DNA from: Octopus vulgaris
Lineage: Eukaryota
Length of the DNA: 64,000 bases
Assembly (NCBI GenBank): GCA_951406725.2
Contig: OX597827.1
Span: forward strand, 60,884,001-60,948,000
Reading direction: 5' to 3'
Shown here: positions 20,031 to 62,329 of the stretch, piece after piece
Layout of the letters: every line of letters begins with the position of its first letter
Numbering within the stretch: position 1 is the first letter of the stretch
Made by a program: the position numbers and the translations under genes
Notes under the pieces: model-generated
The model's input: only the letters and a program-made list of their open reading frames with translations
Told to the model about the DNA's origin: nothing
Database searches by the model: none

Positions 20031-38775
<18,745 letters not shown>

Positions 38776-50416: not shown

Positions 50417-52613
50417 ATCATAGTTATAAAAAGTTGGTTTCTCAACAATCACAATTCCTTATACTAATGCAATCACCATACATTCTATACCAAATATCAG
50501 CATTTTAACATCTACTTTTCTATACTTGCATGGATCAGATAGAATTATTTGAGTCAGATTTCTATAAGTCTTCCTTCCTATCACCAACTTTCACAGGTTT
50601 CTAAGAGAGGAATATTTTACCATGGCTAGACATGATTTCACAGATTGGAAATGAAAGACACTGCTTCTATGACAGTGACGGTCACTTACAACTATCACAT
50701 GATGTCAAGACAGAGACACACACACACACACGTGTGTGTGTACATACATGCATGCATGTATGTATATATATATATATATATAATGGGATTCTTTTAGTTT
50801 CTGTCTACCAAATCCACTCAGAAGGCTTTGGTCAGCCAGAAGCTATTGTAAAAGACACGTTTGTCCAATGAGGCACAGTGGAACTGAACCCAGAACTGCA
50901 TTGTTGGGAAGCAAACTTCTTAACCTCACAGCCATCAGTTTTATAAACTTATACTTAAATTATCTTAATGAAAATTAAATGCAGAAAGGAATTTTAACGA
51001 GTACTACAATTTGTGCCATTCAATATTAATAATGATTTCTAACATAGGCAGAACATAACTATTTCAATGACCCCCCCAGAGGGATGAAAGACAAGTCACC
51101 TTTAGAAGGATTTAAACTCAAAATGTAAAAACCCATAACTAAATGCCACAAGGCATTTTCCCCAATGTTAACAATTTGGCAATCCACAATCCTTTGCTAA
51201 TTTTCAGTGTAAGGGCCAGAAATTTGTAGGGAAGAAAATATAATTAGCAGAACTGAGCCCAATATATTACTGGTACATATTTTATATTAATCCCCGAAGG
51301 GATGAAAGATGAAGTGTCAATCCCAGTTGGAAATGAACTTAGAATGTAAAAATTTGTAAATAGATACCACAAAGTACTTCTTTCATCTGTCTTCTGTTTG
51401 TTCTATATCAACTTGTCTGGTATGTATCTTATCAAACTAGGAAGATGACAGACAGTTTGGTATTGTTAATAATAATAATAATAACTCTTTCTAATTTTTG
51501 GTACAAGGACAGCAATTTTTAAGGGACAGAGAAGTCAATTACATTGAACCTGGTGTTGAACTGGTAAGATATCTTATTGTCCCCAAAAGGATGAAAGGTA
51601 AAATCAACCTTGGTGGCACTGAAACTCAGAATGTAAAGAACCGGAAGGAATACCACTAAGCATTTTGTTTGATGTGCTAACAATTGTCATTGATAATTAG
51701 TCAGATAATTAAATTATAAATTTTTCACATAAGATCCTAAAAACTGAAGACCTTAGTCACTCTATTGTGAAGTAAGTGGTCATACAGGAATAGTCATTTA
51801 CAATACAATGTCCAAAAATTTAATTACAATGTATTATAACAATCATATAGTAGCGCCAAGTTTGTCCGTCCATGGGATGCTTCTAGTTTCTGTAGTGCTA
51901 AGCAAATGAGATAAATCTCTACTGTTAATTGTAATGAGCTGGCAAGATTGTATCTATGGCAAGACGTATCAGAAAAGGCTTCTTCACAAACCTACTGTTG
52001 TTGTTGTTGTTGTTAAACCAATATCTACTTTAGTCAGGAATTCAAGAACAAAATGGTTACTGCAACCAGTGAGAGAATTTCTACAGGGTCTCTAAACCAT
52101 TGAAACTAGTACCATCGTCCAGCAATCTCCATAATGTCTTTGAGAATGGAAGCTACATGATTTTAAGATGTAAGCCTTAAAAAGTGGTATTTCAAAGACT
52201 TTAACCTTTATTCAATATAAGACCAAATGATCCCAGCTATGATGCTAATGAAAGGGCTGTTGAATCCCACCAATCATAATGGTCTCACCAACCCACCTGT
52301 TGGCACCACCAACCCACCTGTCCTTTGTTTAGATTTCCTAACGGATTCATACTGACACAGGCTATCATTCTTCATCAGCATCATGGTTTTACACAAGCAG
52401 TACTGACCGCTGCCACAATAACAAGTCAATCCTGTAATCACTTTTCATCCATACAAGATGGAATACTCGGCACCATCAGCCATATTAAAATTGCGCCAAT
52501 GCCAAACAAGAAGCTGCCACGTTATAGACAAACTCACATGTATTGAAGGAATTCTGATGGGAAGTGAGTACAGTAGCTAACAGGATTGGTGGAGTATCCA
52601 GCAAACAGTTTAA

Positions 52614-52827
52614 TTCTTTCACATTCGAGTTACTGTCAAAGGCAATGCTTATTCATTCACATTCTTATGAATTAATCATGCATCATCTTGTAGCTTCAAG
52701 ATTTTGATGATGTGGTTGTTTATTTTTAGAATGACATTGCAGGGTTGGTGTAAGAAGCTGGATCTGGTCAGTTTGAACATAAAACAGAACATCTAAGCTG
52801 GATATGGCTGCTTTAAATGTTAAAGGG
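52614..52827. mobile_element. piggyBac-type MITE, degenerate copy
   Basis: Homologous to 59649-59868; a reverse copy lies at about 39425-39649. Confidence 0.7.
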
Positions 52828-53358
52828 TTAGCAGTTTTTGTCCTTTCAACACTGCTGTATTCCCTAACAAACTGACTTAACTTTCAATGAAGCTAATTCA
52901 CTTAGCTTTCAATGGGTGTCATGTAAAAGAGAAGAAGCAGTATTGTTCACTACTGTTAAACAGCAAGTTTCATAGATTATTGATCTCAAATCAATAAAAT
53001 AAGTATCAACAATAAACTGAGATTGAGTCAATCAACCCACTTCACCTCTACCCTGACCTTACAAAAAGTTGTTGATGCCTTCTCAAATAAAACTAATATA
53101 GTATTATTTTATTTTTAATAAGGAAGTCTGCAAATTAAACAGCAATGTAAATAATTTAAACTGAATCAAGAAAACTAACTAAATTTAGATCGAAACAAAT
53201 ATATATATATATCTTGTTTCTCTCCTTGTTTTTTCTGTGTCTCTTTCTGTAGAAGAGCATAGGCTCGAAACGTAAAATACTTTTTCTATTCCTGAGCGTT
53301 ATACTAATACATCTGTTTGTTTTGTATACCACCTGCCTTCGTCTTTCTCATAATCTCT

Positions 53359-53396
<38 letters not shown>

Positions 53397-53617
53397 ATAT
53401 ATGGATTTAAAAGTAGATTAACATTAGAAAAAGATTTTAGTGATAGATCCTGAATTAACTATCTTACTTTTGACTAAACCCAAAGCCATGAAAGGATTAA
53501 AAGGAAAGTTTAATTAGTTTAATAATATCTCACTGTTACATTATACTAAACTACAGAATATTGCCATAGATATAGAAACTCATAAAAGCTAACCTTCTTC
53601 AGGTCCCATTTCTTCCT

Positions 53618-55560
53618 TTATTTCCAAAACTTATTCAATAAAATCAATGTAGTACTTAAAATGGCGGCTCCCAAAACAAAGTAACTGATATTTTGGGGAG
53701 TGAAATGACGTTTAAAGTCTATCTTAGAGGCAGGTTCTTCCTTTTCTTTGTTCTCTTGCTCTGCCTTTATCTGAATAGCTGCTTCAATAGCTGAGTCGAC
53801 AATTTCAGAAGCAGATTTCTCTATGTGACTTCCGTGTTCGTCTTTAATTAGAGATTCTTCAGATTTGCTGAGGCTTTTATCTAGAATATCTTGAGAGTCA
53901 GCTTCAAATACATCAACGGTATTCGCAGAGTCCATCACTTCAGCTTCACACTTGCTTTCAAATCCTGAATCCAAAGCACTGGCCTCTTCAGGCAAGATTT
54001 TCTGAGCCACCAAGGTAGGTGTTTCTCTATCATGTGATGTTTCAGAGAGAACTTTCTTATGCTGAGTTTCCTCGGGAACTGTAGTCTTAGTTTCAAGAGA
54101 TATTTCATCCTGGAAGCCATCTTTTGGACTCGTTTTTTCAGAATGATCCCTAGCAGTATCCCCAGACATTTGACTCTGAAATGCAGCCACACTATCTCCT
54201 TTACTCAATTCAAATGACCCACCAGTTTTCACTACATTTACCTCAGAATCGCTTGAAGCATCTGATGCAATATTTTGGAAGCCACTTTCAGGAACTGTTG
54301 GCTCCAAAATTTCTGCTTTAACATCGGAATTATCCTCGATATGGTGATCAGGTGTTGAAGTAGTCTCTACTGATGGTTTAACACTTTCTGATGGAATTTC
54401 CGAAATGGTTTTAGCAACATTTTCAGCATCAGGTGTAATAGTTTTATCAGAGTCTTCAAGAACATCATTGGAACTTGACAATTTACTTTCTAATAAGACA
54501 CTGTTTTGGTTTATGGTATCAGTTTCATTCAGTTCCTCAGCTTCTTTAGGCTTCTGTGTGTTGGAGTAAGCAAAAGGACTCGTGCTGCCGGTCTGCGGAA
54601 GTGAGGAACTGGACTTTGAACCGGAAACAGAGTCCTTAGCAAAAAATGGGCTTGAAAGCGATGTATCAGAAGAACTACTGTTGGAATAAAAATTAGACAT
54701 TTCAGGAGTTTCCTGCTTGGTAGATGATGATGACGACGATGATGATGGCAATGACTCCTTTGAGTAACTAGGAGATGTTGAATAATCTGGAGTTACCATT
54801 GAACTAATGACTGAACTTTGTGGAAGCAGTGGTGTCAAAGTTGGTGAAACAAGATTCCTATCAGACTGAAGGTCATCTCTGACGGACCAATTCTCAGGAA
54901 CTTGATTAAAATTAGGGATATTAAGTGTTGCTTCATTCCTCTGTAGAATTTTGGATTCATATTCTGTATCTTTGCTCACTTGGGACAGATCCTCACCAAA
55001 CAGCTCTTCTGAAACTGCTTCTGGCTTTTGTTCATATTTACTATCGCTATCACCACCGGAAGAACTATGATTTGAGGCAGCATCATTGTAGTGAGACACA
55101 TTCTTAGCATCAGTATCAAGGAAGACAGCATTTGACATGAATCTATGCTCTTCTAAATCATTATTATTGTCTGCATCAAGCGATGCAGTGTTTATTGTCT
55201 TGTTGCTGTCCAATGTATGTTTAGCATCCAGGGCGCTGTCTTTACCTGCCTCGTGCTGAATATTCTGGAATTTGCTGTTGGGCAGCAAGCCAGGAGCAGA
55301 GTTTAATTTCTGCCCATCGCCTACCAGAGGTTCCATGTTATTTCCTTCGACAAATGGAACAGAGTATGGCATATGTTCACTTACATGAGTGTTGTTCAGT
55401 ACCTCTTGTGCATCCTGCATCTTTCCAAGTGCAATTAACAAAGTATCTATATCAGATTTAGTGTGAGTAAGCCAGTTGTAAATAAGATTAACCAGAGAGC
55501 TACCTGAATCAGTTTTCAAGCTTATGTCTTCAAGTTGTGATACTTCTTCCAAACTGTAGC
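53618..55560 (-). CDS. MAVS: MAVS-like last exon: death-domain C-half, long low-complexity linker, tail anchor
   Basis: Acceptor TATGTAG|GC TAC. Reads GYSLEEVSQLE..LIYNWL..IDTLLIALGKM..ISYFVLGAAILSTTLILLNKFWK then TAA; 1.9 kb open frame. Confidence 0.9.
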
Positions 55561-58360
55561 CTACATAAAAACAAAAAGAAAAAAGAAATTCCATTAATTC
55601 ATCTTAAAATGCTGGATCTTTCTGAAACCTATTATCTTAAAATACTAGATTTTTCTAAAACTCACCAATTTATATTAAAATACCGGTTCTTTTTAAAAAC
55701 CATTAATTTATCTTAAAATGTTAGATCTTTCTAAAACCCGTTAATTTATCTTACCCATTCAATTTGAAATAAAATATTAGTAAAAAAATGTAATCCAACA
55801 AAAGAACCACAAACTAGACGGACACTACAAATTGTGTTCATGTCCACGAGACATTTATCAATGGTTCAGCCTGCCTAGCTATAAACAGATATCACAAACA
55901 AGTACAATGCACTACCATAGGCTGTAGTTACTGTCAGATGCCATTGTTTATTCTCTTGTTAGTTGCAAGGCAGGGATGAGAATTAGTCTTGTGAAGACTG
56001 AGAGATTGATCCTCTCAAAGAAAGTCTTTCTAGGGCACTTTGCATGTTTATGGAACGTCACTGAGGCAAGTGAAGAAGTTTAAGTATCTTAAAGCCATAT
56101 TAAAAAATGATGGGAAGAGGAACACTGAATTGATTGCTAGAATTGCAGTTGCTCTCACAGTAGTGTGCCAGCTTCTTCAATTCAGTTTTCATGCCTACCC
56201 TAAGGTCACAAATGTTGAGTAATGACTGAAAGAGTATGATAACAGATATAAGCAGTTGAAATGAGTTTCTTCTGAAGAATCTCTGGATGACATTACTTGA
56301 CAGTATGCATAACTTATAGACTATGGAGTCTCTCTGAGTTGAGTCATGACTTCTCCATGTTGGGAGGTCACAGCTCCAGTACTATGGATATGAGATTAAA
56401 CAATCACATGACAGACTCTTGAAACTGCATCAACCAGCAGGAGGCCTAGTGGTAGGCCAAGAACACAATAGTTGGATATTCTTATATTACAAAAGACATG
56501 CTGATCTCTGTTTGTCCACTCGTCACACCATATATTTAGAAAGGAAGGAGAAAAAGTTGATGTTAAGAGAGAAATACAGTAGTAATGTCTTGGCAATAAA
56601 TGCTAGATAATTATCATAGTAATACAGTGGCTGTGAAGGTAAGATGCTGGCATACAGAGGTAGCACATCATAACAAAGGTCACCAAGATTTTTGTTATAT
56701 AGGACACAGTTTATCTTAAATAGGAAAAAATAAAACAGAAAATGTTTTATACTTAAAGCATCAGCAAGGGAACCATCTTACAACCAAATCTCAATATCAA
56801 AATATGTTAACATTTTTAAAAAATAAACTCCATGGAAAAAAATTTGTTGAAGAAGAGGAGTCTGTTTGTCTGTCTCTCTCTTGATACTCTACATCAAATG
56901 ATAATCAGTAATTAAAAAAAAAATCCATCACCAAACTAGTTAATTAACTGCTGTGTGCTTTACAAATGATGTGGAAGGAACCTGTGGAAGTGATAGATCC
57001 AGGAAAACATGAGACGAAGGGGTGAAACATGATCTTTGGATGTTGAATTTCACAGAGGTGATAAGTGATCAAGATCTTTGGTGATTAGCTATGCTTGAGA
57101 AGATATGTCAAGTCAAGTGGAATCACAGTGGTGAATAGTAAAAGGCACCCACTACACTCATGGGGTGGTTGGTGTTAAGAAAGGCATCCAACCATAGAAA
57201 CCAAAACAAATCAAAGCCGAGCCTGGTACAGCTCTCCAGCTTATCAACCTGTCAAACTATCTGACCCATGCCAGCTTGGAAAATGGACACTAAATTATGA
57301 TGATGGTGATGTGTATTTTACCAATACAAAACTATAACTGATCAATGACCAAAATCATTTGCTGTAAACATACCAAGATGTAAAGCCAACAGTCTCCAGC
57401 TTTCAGGGTATTCTTGGTCCAATCGTTTCAGGGGCCCAAGTAGGTTTGGTAGAATGGATTCCCATTTAGATTCATCTGGAATACTCCACTGTCTGCTCAC
57501 CTCGTTTTGCAGTGATTTGTAAGTATTTTTATAGTAGTTATTATTATTTTTCCCACAGCTGTACTCGTTACTAAAATGGTAATTCTTAGACACCAGATCT
57601 GGAAACAAAGAAAGGTAAATTATGATCAATTTTTTATTTTCATAGCAAAAGGGCATTAAAAAAAAATACTGAAAAGGAAGAAAAGACCACATGGGGAAAA
57701 AAACACAGTTTGGGTTCTAAAAGAAAGAAGGACAAAAGTGAATATGTGGGTAGAAGTGATATGCTGCTCTCACTCAGAGTAGAAGCCAGTGATAAAATAA
57801 TTTGTCTTTATCATTCAGTCCAATAGCATTTTTTGTCTAGTTTAGGGTGTTTATATGCAGCAAGCTGGCAGAATAGTTAACATGCTGGGTGAAATGCTGA
57901 GGCCAACTTAGCCTTTCATCGTTTCATGGTCAATAAATTAAGGGCCAGTCGAGCATGGGGTGAGCAATATAATTGGCTTAACTACTCTTGGGTATGAGTA
58001 TAAAAAACAAAAGAAAAAAAGACTGCATCAATCTGCCAAGCCATGTCAAGCCAGAATGACAGAGTAGGTTCATCAAACCAATATGATTTCAAGCTCAAAT
58101 TCACAGCTTCCATGCCAGACTATGTTTGGTGGGGTGCACAGGCTGAGACCTTCATCTTGCAGTAGACTGAACGTAGGCAATCCAATCCAATCCAATCTAA
58201 TCTAAAATGCAGTAGTAATATCAATGTCCAAGATGTTGGGGGTAATGTTTCATTGGAGTAGCAATTTATTAATATTCTCTAGCCTCGGGCCGACCAAAGC
58301 CTTGTGAGTGGATTTGGTAGACGGAAACTGAAAGAAGCTCATTGTATATATGTATATATG

Positions 58361-58391
<31 letters not shown>

Positions 58392-60831
58392 CTGTCCCCT
58401 GCAACATCACTTGACAACTGATGCTGGTGTGTTTACATCACTATAACTTAGCGGTTCAGCAAACGAGACCGATAGAATAAGTACTAGGCTTACAAAGAAT
58501 AAGTGCTGTGGTCGATTTGCTCGACAAAAGGCGGTGCTCCAGCATGACCACAGTCAAATGACTGAAACAAGTAAAATAGTAAGTGTAATTCATAATCTCT
58601 ATGGCATGTCTTACCTAATGTCACTCTATATCCCACAGCTATCTTAGTTTTGTAAGAATTACTAAATAGTTAATAAGATGAGTTTGACAATTGTCATGAG
58701 GCATAAAGGAAAAGCAAAGTTGAACTTGGCAGGGTTTGGAATCAGAATATAAAGGGGTATACCTGGTGTTCTATCAGTTCTCTCATTTGCTACTATGACA
58801 ATGCTAAGGGCAGAGTAACAACAGCTGTCACACTCAGAGCAAGCAAATTCACCCTGTCCACTTTCATTCCTGTCACTATCAGAATCTCAAGGCATACAGA
58901 AGGTGACTGAACAGTGGAGAATGTGCAACCTGGGTGGGCTACCGAGTTGCACCACTGCATGCAATTAACTTGTGTATGTAGGTCAGGAGTAGTATGATTG
59001 TCTATGCTAGGTGGAAGCATGGCATATTGAGAACAACAGGTCTGTGAGCTAATATCTAGTCATTCAGCCAACCACCTGCATGCTGTATATGTGTACGTGA
59101 TCAAAAGCTGATATGGAACTCTACAATAACAACAGATAAGACAATGTTGAGAGAGCAACAACAAGTCCAGACTGTCAGTGAACCCCATACAGATTAATTA
59201 CTGTTTACGGAAATACCCAGTATTTTATTTTATTATTTCTTTTTTTCATTAATTAATTTGGGAGAAAAAAAAATGTAATGTGGCTTTGTGGTAAGTAGCC
59301 GATAGAATAAGTACTAGGCTTACAAAGAATAAGTCCTGGGGTCGATTTGTTCGACTAAAGGCGGGGCTCCAGCATGGCCGCAGTCAAATGACTGAAACAA
59401 GTAAAAGAGTAAAAGAGAGAATAGAGATAAACTCACCTTCTTGGGACCGTTTCACTTTCTCAGCTAAGTCAGGTAGGTTGATGCTGGAACTGAGTAAAGC
59501 TTCAGCTAGTCTCAACTGCCAGTGCTCACTTGATGCAAGATGATGAAGTAAACTATTCACAGCAGCCTCGTTCCCTTTAATTTCATATTCCAGTTCAATT
59601 TGATCCTATGAAAAACAGGGATTCATTTGCCTATTTTAGAACAATTAACCCTTTAATATTCAGAGTACTCCATAAAATTTAATGCTTTTTGATTCACACT
59701 GTTTTGAAGTAATCATGCATTATCTTGTAGCTTTAAGATTTTGATGATGTGGTTGCTTATTTTTAGAATGACATTGTAGGGTAGGTGTGAGAGGCTGAAT
59801 ATGGCCAGTCTGAACATAAAACAAGTAGAATATTTGGGTCGGAAACGGCCGGTTTAAAAACTAAAGGGTTAAACACTACATACAGATGGGGTATGCATGG
59901 CCCATACAAACAACTAGACGAGATGTACCTACATTTATTGTAGTGATATCAAAGTTCTTCATTCATGAAATACCAAAACACAAAAGAAGTTGCATTAGTA
60001 TCAATGGCGGTGCCTCACTATGACTAGAGCCCTATCAGTAAAAGAAAGTGTTGTGTCATTATGTGTGTGTGTTTTAATTGGCACAAGTTTTGAAGTGACT
60101 GAAAGGATGAGAGTTTTGCCCCTGAAACTCTTGGCTTTTGAGACTTAACTGACTTTTCAAAAGTCAAAATATGTATGATGGAACCTGATAAAACCAAGGT
60201 CAGTCTTAGGTTGGTGGGTTTCAAAAGGGGTTAAGGTAAAAGCAAAGTTTTGTTGTTTTTCTTTCAATAAGAATTGAAACAGTGATCCTGTGATTAACAG
60301 GATCACTGCTTTTAAACTATTTTTCACAGTAAGATGAAATATACTCTTTTACTTGTTTCAGACATTTGACTGTGGCCATGCTGGAGCACCACCTTTAGTC
60401 GAGCAAATCAACCCCAGGACTTATTCTTTGTAAGCTTAGTACTTATTCTATTGGTCTCTTTTGCTGAACCACTAAGTTAAGGGGTCATAAACACACCAGC
60501 ATCGGTTGTCAAGCGATGTTGGGGGGACAAACACACACACACACACACGATGGGCTTCTTTCAGTTTCCGACTACCAAATCCACTCACAAGGCTTTGGTC
60601 AACTCGAGGCTATAGCAGAAGACACTTGCCCAAGGTACCACGCAGTGGGACTGAACCCAGAAACATGTGGTTGGTAAACAAGCTATTTACCACACAGCCA
60701 CTCCTACGCCTATATAACTAAATAACTTTTTTGATTCCCATTTTTTTCATTAAAATCTTAACTTTTCTGCTTTATATTATCATTTCATAAATGCACAACA
60801 TATTAGAATGCTAGAAAAAAAAAAAGAAAAA

Positions 60832-60863
<32 letters not shown>

Positions 60864-62329
60864 GAATATTTACTTTATTTGCCCATTTTTCTCATTCAGT
60901 TTCTCTGTTATTGTAAAGCTGGATATAGCTGTTGCCAGTTCTATTGTATTTACCTTGCTATGTAATATGGTGAAGTGGTCTGGTTGAATAAGTTAGTCAG
61001 GCGGTGGGGGGGGGGTATGTTGCCACATCAATATAATGGACCTGGGCAGAATTCATACACAACTTCGCAGTAACAAAGAAATTAATAAGGTAAAAATAAA
61101 CGGGGGGTAGGATGTGAAATGAAATATGAACTGCAGCTTTCAACAATGAATGCAAAATAATACACACACACACACACACACAAGCGTATGCAAATGTACA
61201 CACACACACACATAAATACATATACACACAAACAAATCTTCACACACATACATATACATGCATACACAATCACATGCATGCTTATACACACAAAGATATA
61301 AGCCTCCACTCACATACACACACACTCAATAATTTTTGAGGTACATGCAAATGATAATATTTTGCCTCTTTATTTAAAAATGGTCAATACCAATGCTCCC
61401 TGACTGGCTCCCGTTCCAGTGGCATGTGAAAAGCACCATCCGAACATGGTCGATGCCAGTGTTCCCTGACTGGTTCCCGTGCCAGTGGCATGTAAAAAGC
61501 ACCCACTACACTCTTGGAGTGATTGGCATTGGGCATCAAGCTATAGAATCATTGCCAGATCAGATTGGAGCTTGGTGCAGCCCACTGGCTTGCCAGACCT
61601 TAGTCAAACCGTCCAACTCATGCCGGCATGGAAAGCAGATGTTAAATGATGATGATGTTTGTACTGTTTATCAGTTCACTTGCTCCATCAAATTGATATT
61701 GCCTGAACAACAAATCAAAGGTGCCATGCAGTGGGACTAAACCCAAGAGTACATGGCTGGGAAGAAAGCTTCTTGGCCACATAGCTACGCCTTTTTATCT
61801 GGCCTTCTTTTTTTCTTTTCACGATCCTTTTTGATCGGAATTGCCCCACCCCCACTTTCTTTTTTCTTTTTTTCTCCTTCTCGACTTCCCAAAAAGAAAA
61901 GCTCTACTTTGTATTTTGTCTCTTCTGTGTTCAGCCCTGCATGGCTAATAAAGACATCTATCTAGATACAAAAAAAAAAAAAAAAAAAAAAAGGGACAAT
62001 AGTCATGGCTAGACTATCTTTGATCATGTGTTAATACATGAAGATACTGAATTATCTTCATATCAGATACAGTGTCTAAATGACTGCAGAAACCCTTTTG
62101 GATTGACAACTGTTTCATTAACAAAACCCATACAAGATTATAAAACAAAAAAAAGGTGGGGGGGGGGGGTAACCAACAACAAATAAAAGGGGTAAATGTA
62201 CCAAACTTTAATATCGGTTGATATACAACTCTCCAGTTCCTGTATAAGGACCACTGCAGGCACACACTCCTGTAGTTCTGCTGTCACTTCTTTCAGAAAG
62301 TCTCTGGTTTCTTTAGTAAGTGTCTCAGG
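53618..62329 (-). CDS. MAVS: MAVS-like mitochondrial antiviral signalling adaptor (CARD, death domain, Ser/acidic linker, C-terminal TM); span of 4 visible coding exons, start exon not located
   Basis: Exons 62329-62207, 59605-59437, 57598-57374 and 55560-53618 join in frame (2460 nt) at GT-AG sites. The domain order and tail anchor match invertebrate MAVS. Identity is inferred by eye, not by a search. Confidence 0.72.
55592..55754. repeat. Degenerate minisatellite, unit about 38 bp, about 4 copies
   Basis: ATCTTAAAAT..TRGAT.TTTCT.AAAC recurs. Confidence 0.75.
56030..56480 (+). mobile_element. Old RTE LINE fragment
   Basis: LRQVKKFKYL..NDG....LIARI and AVEMSFF.RISG, plus a G.RP.GRPR-like segment, with stops. 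Confidence 0.7.
57374..57598 (-). CDS. MAVS: MAVS-like exon: linker and death-domain N-half
   Basis: Acceptor TTTCCAG|, donor G|GTATGT, phase 1-1. Reads ..LLGPLKRLDQEYPESWRLLALHLG, with the W..LA..LG death-domain motif. Confidence 0.88.
59437..59605 (-). CDS. MAVS: MAVS-like exon: CARD C-half
   Basis: Acceptor TTTTCATAG|, donor GAAG|GTGAGT. Reads DQIELEYEIKGNEAAVNSLLHHLASSEHWQLRLAEALLSSSINLPDLAEKV. Confidence 0.88.
59649..59868. mobile_element. piggyBac-type MITE
   Basis: TTAA|CCCTTTA ... TAAAGGG|TTAA. Confidence 0.82.
60343..60710 (-). mobile_element. SINE family A
   Basis: Near-consensus reverse copy. Confidence 0.88.
62207..62329 (-). CDS. MAVS: MAVS-like exon: CARD N-half
   Basis: Acceptor CTTCCAG|, donor AAA|GTTTGG, phase 0-0. 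Reads PETLTKETRDFLKEVTAELQECVPAVVLIQELESCISTDIK. Confidence 0.8.

Follow-up and report, generated by a model that had tools for sequence, protein, structure and literature searches.

Among molluscs, reports of the antiviral adaptor MAVS come from oyster and scallop, and gastropod surveys of abalone and Aplysia found none (PMC11103948, PMC9334734). The oyster protein, CgMAVS, consists of a CARD, a death domain and a transmembrane segment (CARD-Death-TM). It binds the CARDs of CgRIG-I-1 as well as TRAF6 and self-associates through its anchor, its knock-down combined with virus challenge led to higher mortality, and it did not activate NF-kB, interferon-stimulated response element (ISRE) or interferon-beta (IFN-beta) reporters in human cells (PMC5557890). 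The death domain of scallop MAVS has as its partner a TBK1/IKKepsilon-type kinase, to whose coiled coil it binds (PMC9879056). The CARD-Death-TM architecture itself is not new, having been known in bivalves since 2017. Squid work invokes RIG-I signalling but names no adaptor (PMC7665748), and a survey of lophotrochozoan receptors that includes Octopus bimaculoides mentions MAVS, in its accessible part, only for oyster and vertebrates (PMC8998645). MAVS also appears in a pathway figure whose colours mark components as found or absent (PMC4199593). We found no cephalopod MAVS in the literature searched, with most subscription fish and shellfish immunity journals outside it, so a prior description is possible; no literature naming the loci or accessions treated here was found either. 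Here we describe a minus-strand gene of Octopus vulgaris that is very probably orthologous to oyster MAVS, and whose main transcript, in the four assemblies examined, is out of frame in the CARD. It lies in a 64,000-nucleotide stretch (the window), positions 60884001-60948000 of contig C14 (OX597827.1).

A long open reading frame occupies 53618-55603 of the minus strand (661 amino acids from stop to stop, 658 from the first methionine). The original prediction, made from the letters of the window, held that three small upstream exons splice to it in frame. We found that four exons with GT-AG ends join into 2460 nucleotides, encoding 819 amino acids with a single terminal stop, and public models P0001-P0003 and P0005 use the same joins. 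The parts of the gene, in window positions, are as follows.

62207-62329, minus strand: exon A, in-frame form, 123 nucleotides, first half of the CARD, as in models P0001, P0002, P0003 and P0005
62202-62329, minus strand: exon A as in transcript contigs, 128 nucleotides, 5 nucleotides longer and frame-shifted, in gapless contiguous pieces in four of four sequencing runs
59437-59605, minus strand: exon B, 169 nucleotides, second half of the CARD, matching CARD_2 on its own (E = 0.00097)
57374-57598, minus strand: exon C, 225 nucleotides, a spacer rich in Asn and Tyr, then the beginning of the death domain
53618-55560, minus strand: coding part of exon D, 1943 nucleotides, end of the death domain, acidic Ser-rich linker, anchor and stop
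52500-53617, minus strand: 3' untranslated region, covered by several contig pieces and continuing past 52500

AATAAA signals are present at 53113, 52724 and 52212. Exon D matches a single locus in the genome, and its product is identical to the matching part of P0001, an O. vulgaris model called 'dentin sialophosphoprotein-like' in its source. Relatives are found in O. sinensis (LOC115219348), O. bimaculoides (LOC106868927) and Argonauta (GAB1604361.1, P0006). Public labels of the octopod gene are limited to uncharacterised or dentin-sialophosphoprotein-like; an uncharacterised label had been expected. A LETM1_RBD match on exon C (E = 0.002, below the cut-off) was treated as chance.

The CARD-like domain that had been predicted was confirmed by Pfam. 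The two Octopus proteins exceeded the CARD_2 cut-off of 28.2 bits with 33.2 and 31.7, and the same scan did not match the classical CARD family (PF00619) in either. The Argonauta protein scored 25.6 bits, so two of the three octopod proteins scanned pass the CARD_2 cut-off. The death domain, expected to be split over two exons, is collinear with that of CgMAVS in both sequence and profile alignments, but its Pfam Death scores (19.9, 19.6 and 18.6 bits in the three octopod proteins) all lie below the cut-off of 22.6; in the PDB it gave weak matches to the p75NTR death domain. Between this domain and the C-terminus lies a linker (residues 236-790) with 18% Ser and a net charge of -56. The C-terminus ends, as predicted, in an 18-residue hydrophobic segment and a short tail. 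The most hydrophobic 19-mer of the protein lies here, and the best 18-mer has a mean Kyte-Doolittle value of 2.13 versus 1.79 in CgMAVS. The net charge of +2 in the tail is also found in O. bimaculoides, Argonauta and CgMAVS. On hydropathy and charge, we predict this segment to be a tail anchor.

55394-57470, minus strand: death domain, residues about 141-228, interrupted by the C/D intron (E = 0.0008 for Pfam Death, sub-threshold)
53636-53689, minus strand: C-terminal hydrophobic segment of 18 residues, predicted tail anchor by hydropathy
53618-53635, minus strand: basic tail of five residues, net +2, and stop codon

When the CARD and death-domain part was searched against 1.84 billion representatives (E <= 0.001), three matches were obtained: two octopods and a 412-amino-acid oyster protein of CARD_2-Death-TM type (E = 4e-5), the only non-cephalopod match in that search. 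Both CARD_2 and Death exceed their cut-offs in the oyster protein, which also has a hydrophobic C-terminus. Among its own relatives (six matches) is the Crassostrea gigas LOC105337492 cluster; the first and last codons of LOC105337492 agree, in a comparison by eye, with the CgMAVS cDNA (supplement of PMC5557890). The octopus protein is 28% identical to CgMAVS over 175 amino acids spanning both domains, and profile-profile alignment (hhalign) matched the two domains continuously to the oyster MAVS family (probability 94%, E = 9e-8). In the PDB, the oyster protein matches vertebrate MAVS CARDs best (E = 2e-4) and MDA5 less well (0.07), and a profile of oyster CARDs ranked the two Octopus CARDs first of eight non-oyster rows. 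A partial oyster model, P0042, begins at residue 41 of CgMAVS, which in the alignment pairs with the first residue of octopus exon B, suggesting that a phase-0 intron splitting the CARD is common to octopus and oyster MAVS. Annotated oyster forms in two Crassostrea species (P0040-P0042) either begin at residue 74 or are without the first half of the CARD; RefSeq isoform X3 starts at residue 74 in two species, without most of the CARD. Short oyster proteins (66-94 amino acids, Logan clusters) were considered as splice products and rejected as single-exon read-throughs. Taken together, these comparisons point strongly to orthology with oyster MAVS. MAVS membership is claimed for the gene by descent, and MAVS function depends on an in-frame CARD transcript.

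Several results weigh against the assignment. Besides the sub-threshold Death scores, a PDB search with the octopod proteins alone gave no MAVS match, octopod and oyster CARDs did not group together in a CARD-only tree (13 rows, none dropped, no vertebrate rows) that had long branches and a basal support of 56/73, and of the eight non-oyster rows the Argonauta CARD came last with the oyster CARD profile. The reciprocal search worked in one direction only: the octopus query reaches the oyster family, but CgMAVS as query found nothing in the octopus genome, this locus included, so the two cannot be called best reciprocal matches. The pLxIS motif and the TRAF2/3 motif PxQxT/S of vertebrate MAVS were not found in the two Octopus proteins, nor in any of three oyster proteins, and the gene is not classed with the vertebrate type; two TRAF6-type motif matches are not kept in Argonauta. 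The claim of cephalopod MAVS identity is supported by the CARD_2 type, by the sole non-cephalopod family recovered and by the profile match to it; the CARD-only tree leaves the grouping undecided, and the first splice join described below departs from the prediction.

In the ESM Atlas, the top rank went to CRADD-like CARD and death-domain clusters (0.84), and a MAVS-like cluster came lower, at 0.78; with all values below 0.9, these are leads only. This bears on another explanation, namely that the gene encodes a membrane-anchored cell-death adaptor resembling RAIDD/CRADD and not the adaptor of RIG-I-like receptors. The top clusters are indeed of CRADD type (0.83-0.84), the death domain resembles those of p75NTR, PIDD and RIPK1, and the silence of CgMAVS on the NF-kB, ISRE and IFN-beta reporters in human cells (PMC5557890) would fit as well. 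However, the CARD is of the CARD_2 type without a PF00619 match, the CRADD-like clusters measure 225-245 amino acids versus about 820 with an anchor here, and the nearest relative is an oyster family that binds the RIG-I CARD and protects against virus (PMC5557890). We regard a RAIDD/CRADD-like adaptor as distinctly improbable.

Transcript evidence was taken from sequencing runs. Exon D was present in 20 of 24 runs listed, and four, from four studies with tissues not recorded, were examined; the run records do not give them as RNA, but they are presumably RNA and show spliced joints. Their contigs keep the majority path only, minor splice forms being dropped. Joins B/C and C/D were as modelled in all four runs, so the predicted in-frame splicing of the upstream exons stands for these two joins but not for the first. 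The first join was 59605|62202 (intron 59606-62201) in all four runs, at the depth of the main contig. It lies five bases into the modelled intron and puts the CARD out of frame. The original prediction had named junctions absent from transcripts as a reason to give it up, and the first junction is absent, as modelled, from the majority form in four of four runs. The in-frame join, 59605|62207, was seen in none of the four runs among the joints listed (15 of 52, from majority-path contigs). The elements of the shift are listed here; donors were scored against a U1-complementary consensus.

62205-62206, minus strand: in-frame GT donor, weak (4 of 11 consensus matches), at the position of the oyster exon boundary inferred from P0042
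62200-62201, minus strand: GT donor used in the contigs (+5), 6 of 11 consensus matches
59557-59559, minus strand: premature stop in the +5 form, codon 59 from the start of exon A
55418-55420, minus strand: Met220, where the long frame of the +5 form has its first ATG, giving 600 amino acids

The other four donors of the gene match the consensus at 7-9 of 11 positions. These results demonstrate that two GT donors 5 nucleotides apart compete at the CARD-splitting intron, and that the contig form is the out-of-frame one. The main transcript does not encode the 819-amino-acid protein. Because the start of the oyster model aligns with the start of exon B, the in-frame donor would be the older site, at the shared phase-0 intron. 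The stop of the +5 form falls inside the CARD, 120 nucleotides before the next junction and 345 before the last, and, should translation begin upstream, the +5 form is predicted to be subject to decay. Translation from Met220 would give a product without the CARD and without nearly all of the death domain; only three ATGs precede Met220 after exon A. In start and length this product equals RefSeq XP_052828638.1 (P0004) of O. bimaculoides, which has no Pfam match, and we infer that this protein arises from the same +5 splice.

Other origins of the shift were considered. Reading exon A in a different frame does not rescue the +5 join (a stop lies two codons before the join, with further stops upstream), and an assembly error was rejected too, since the contigs agree with exons A and B without indels. 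A processed copy as the origin of the spliced contigs is unlikely given the single genomic locus. By inspection, no slippery heptamer for ribosomal frameshifting was seen at the join, and no A-to-G change that could reflect RNA editing strengthening the in-frame donor was listed in exon A. The duplex predicted for the donor region (-23.9 kcal/mol) is not unusual versus 14 control windows (-21.8 to -38.0).

We then compared conservation of the domains with that of the linker. Between O. vulgaris and O. bimaculoides, the CARD and death domain together are identical at 176/183 residues and the linker at 497/557 (Fisher p = 0.004); the death domain alone is identical at 86/88. Versus Argonauta the values are 123/183 and 195/557, and the CARD alone, at 56/95, exceeds the linker (p = 2e-5). 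The 600-amino-acid form is without nearly all of the death domain, yet that domain is conserved, which argues that a longer form is translated. A minor in-frame form probably exists, because the CARD and death domain are still better conserved than the linker.

These data also bear on the possibility that the gene descends from MAVS but that its CARD form has largely stopped in Octopus, the main product being the 600-amino-acid tail-anchored scaffold, possibly a membrane anchor for protein kinase A (PKA). Consistent with it are the lack of the in-frame junction among the joints listed in the four runs, the presence of only three upstream ATGs before Met220, and the position of a conserved helix and a Ser/Thr-Pro motif (described below) in the retained part. 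CARD conservation on its own within Octopus (90/95 versus the linker, p = 0.14) is not significant, which fits loss of the CARD form and counts against the reading preferred below. On the other hand, the death domain is nearly unchanged between the Octopus species though absent from the 600-amino-acid form, all exons are open with no stops or indels, the CARD frame continues from an alternative first exon that offers an ATG and a strong donor, and the genome holds a CARD-bearing receptor. Cessation of the CARD form therefore seems to us quite unlikely.

The reading that we prefer, and hold to be moderately probable, is that the gene is the octopus counterpart of MAVS and that its dose is limited by unproductive splicing. 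By analogy with the family, the C-terminal anchor would insert into the mitochondrial outer membrane. A RIG-I-like receptor on contig C2 (see below) would bind viral double-stranded RNA and seed assembly of the adaptor CARD, and the death domain and linker, as in bivalves, may recruit TRAF6 and a TBK1/IKKepsilon-type kinase, leading to NF-kB and IRF targets. The original prediction had suggested FADD, RIP or IRAK-type partners for the death domain; the published partner, in scallop, is of the TBK1/IKKepsilon type (PMC9879056). The competing donors at the CARD intron would divert transcripts into the +5 form, which may undergo nonsense-mediated decay or be translated from Met220 into the 600-amino-acid anchor-only protein. 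Either outcome would limit spontaneous CARD assembly, as do short forms and upstream open reading frames of human MAVS. In human cells, N-terminally truncated MAVS forms, acting through the anchor, block spontaneous aggregation (PMC5474743), upstream open reading frames limit MAVS (PMC7190755), and splice variants and miniMAVS restrain it (PMC5536018). It is from human MAVS that we infer a dose-limiting role for the splice choice in octopus, and oyster isoform X3 offers a parallel.

Further points against this reading concern expression. The in-frame join is missing from the joints listed, the full-length product is supported by database models and conservation, and the splice choice may be noise and not regulation. 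The gene may be an ordinary mollusc-type MAVS in which the +5 form reflects weak-donor splicing noise or a tissue bias, with immune cells using mostly the in-frame join. Animal genes often have a second, frame-shifting donor close to the first. The in-frame join is the one in four public models, and just 4 of the 24 runs, of unrecorded tissue, were examined. Noise does not usually yield a form that is assembled in four of four studies at whole-transcript depth, least of all one that is a predicted decay target, and a CARD-less RefSeq protein exists in a second species. We consider noise or tissue bias unlikely.

A receptor partner for the proposed adaptor was sought by a profile search of the genome. 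One CARD_2 exon over the cut-off was found on contig C2, and a strong RIG-I C-terminal exon lies 130 kb downstream on the same strand, consistent with one CARD-bearing RIG-I-like receptor. This search sees split CARDs poorly, and the gene studied here was itself missed. The other 11 CARD_2 matches over the cut-off belong to an array on contig C24, and all three that were scanned score higher on PF00619. The array (C24:38.85-39.06 Mb, L021-L031) is a tandem one of at least 11 near-identical single-exon CARDs, of two subtypes and on both strands.

Two stretches of the linker are conserved in Argonauta.

54764-54853, minus strand: Ser/Thr-Pro-rich linker motif, residues about 409-438, the best-conserved linker stretch versus Argonauta
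53774-53824, minus strand: conserved amphipathic helix, residues 752-768

The best linker 16-mer, near residue 421, is identical at 14 of 16 positions, and the Ser/Thr-Pro motif is likely a phosphorylation or docking site. The second of the two best 16-mers, at residue 753 within the helix, is identical at 13 of 16, versus 195/557 over the linker. The hydrophobic moment of the helix ranks 15th of 550 linker windows. Residues 752-768 seem to resemble the PKA-RII docking helix of A-kinase anchoring proteins (AKAPs). A loose version of the AKAP hydrophobic-spacing pattern fits all three octopod proteins but also 1619 of 5000 shuffled linkers; a strict version fits 0 of 5000 shuffles, yet it was written after the helix had been seen and is no fair test. 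The helix alone had no match in Pfam (RII_binding_1 included) or the PDB, the strict pattern was not found in the three oyster proteins scanned, and the O. vulgaris protein did not contain a canonical PKA site. The accessible part of PMC10990152 did not yield an AKAP consensus. PKA phosphorylates the human MAVS CARD and blocks its aggregation (PMC5626498), and by analogy a built-in PKA dock would make sense; we treat it as a lead. Among PKA regulatory subunit genes, one is intronless (L037:514-1671, with RIIa and two cNMP domains) and possibly a retrogene, and others, at L034 and L035, contain introns; L035 carries the octopus RII docking domain.

A broader version of the preferred reading would combine these elements. 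MAVS would be off by default through a conserved five-base splice switch in the CARD, most of the product being the CARD-less 600-amino-acid scaffold, which would bring its own PKA-docking helix and damp the few full-length molecules, and infection would shift the donor choice and so arm the pathway. Such an arrangement might be an adaptation to a high load of self double-stranded RNA in repeat-rich, heavily A-to-I-edited transcriptomes. As a whole we find this combination rather improbable.

The 819-amino-acid model has no start codon inside the window, and exon A needs an upstream exon for its start. Database models differ from one another upstream of exon A. An ATG and a strong donor mark a candidate first exon 3 kb upstream (near C14:60949355-60949366), which shares the CARD frame and matches the O. 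bimaculoides start. Two models instead use a 30-nucleotide exon 58.6 kb upstream (C14:61004921-61004950). In the three runs where the piece is listed, contig pieces extend two bases beyond the exon A acceptor; the two bases would fit an upstream exon ending in AG, such as the 30-nucleotide exon, and not the near ATG exon. The contigs also hold up to about 660 nucleotides of upstream sequence without genomic placement. In the public O. vulgaris model, residues 1-72 are encoded by a tandem repeat of 30 bp that lies 63 kb upstream of exon A (C14:61009556-61009771, L008) and has a look-alike on contig C26, and this start is probably an annotation artefact. In the partial Argonauta model (P0006, residues 1-648), more than 640 acidic residues with a 13-residue period precede the CARD, and five units resemble the first CARD helix, a result reached by 0 of 500 shuffles; the repeat may have arisen by tandem amplification of CARD helix 1, or else it is an artefact of the gene model.

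As for the surroundings, window positions 1-52500 hold 44 open frames of at least 110 amino acids, mostly simple repeats and interspersed elements. By its look, we take 22466-24247 to be a decayed fragment of a long interspersed nuclear element (LINE); 23239-23997 had no Pfam match. The next gene upstream on the same strand (C14 about 61037500-61064200, L016-L019) has long Pro-rich and Arg/Asp-rich exons and may resemble YLPM1.

A cephalopod MAVS under the label 'dentin sialophosphoprotein-like' would fill a gap in the mollusc MAVS record. The gene would be a knock-down target for asking whether cephalopod RNA editing shields self RNA from RIG-I-like sensing. Since use of the frame-breaking donor can be read from one countable junction, existing raw RNA-seq would serve to test whether splicing sets the MAVS dose.

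Among known systems, A-kinase anchoring proteins have a hydrophobic spacing pattern that, in a loose version common by chance, octopod residues 752-768 also fit, without a Pfam RII_binding_1 or PDB match. RAIDD/CRADD, the PIDDosome adaptor, has a CARD followed by a death domain, as does the octopus protein, but its CARD is classical, its clusters measure 225-245 amino acids and it has no membrane anchor. The bivalve proteins, oyster CgMAVS (KY630189; LOC105337492, XP_011440519) and scallop CfMAVS (OM069740), have the same CARD_2-Death-linker-TM order as the octopus protein. CgMAVS further shares the net +2 tail, the 28% identity over both domains, a probable common phase-0 CARD intron and a database isoform without the CARD. 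The linker, however, is about 560 amino acids long in octopus versus about 90, its octopus motifs are absent from the oyster proteins scanned, and the majority transcript of octopus breaks the CARD frame that the published oyster cDNA keeps. Vertebrate MAVS (IPS-1/VISA/Cardif; PDB 4o9l, 3j6j, 2ms7) has the CARD type and the tail anchor in common with the octopus gene, and a mollusc profile (six of eight rows oyster) matches vertebrate MAVS CARDs with E = 1e-7 to 3e-4. The octopus gene differs in its extra death domain and in being without LxIS or PxQxT/S. CARD-less anchored forms damp signalling in vertebrate MAVS (PMC5536018, PMC5474743, PMC7190755), where they arise by leaky scanning or exon skipping, whereas damping in octopus would use a frame-shifting donor in the CARD intron.

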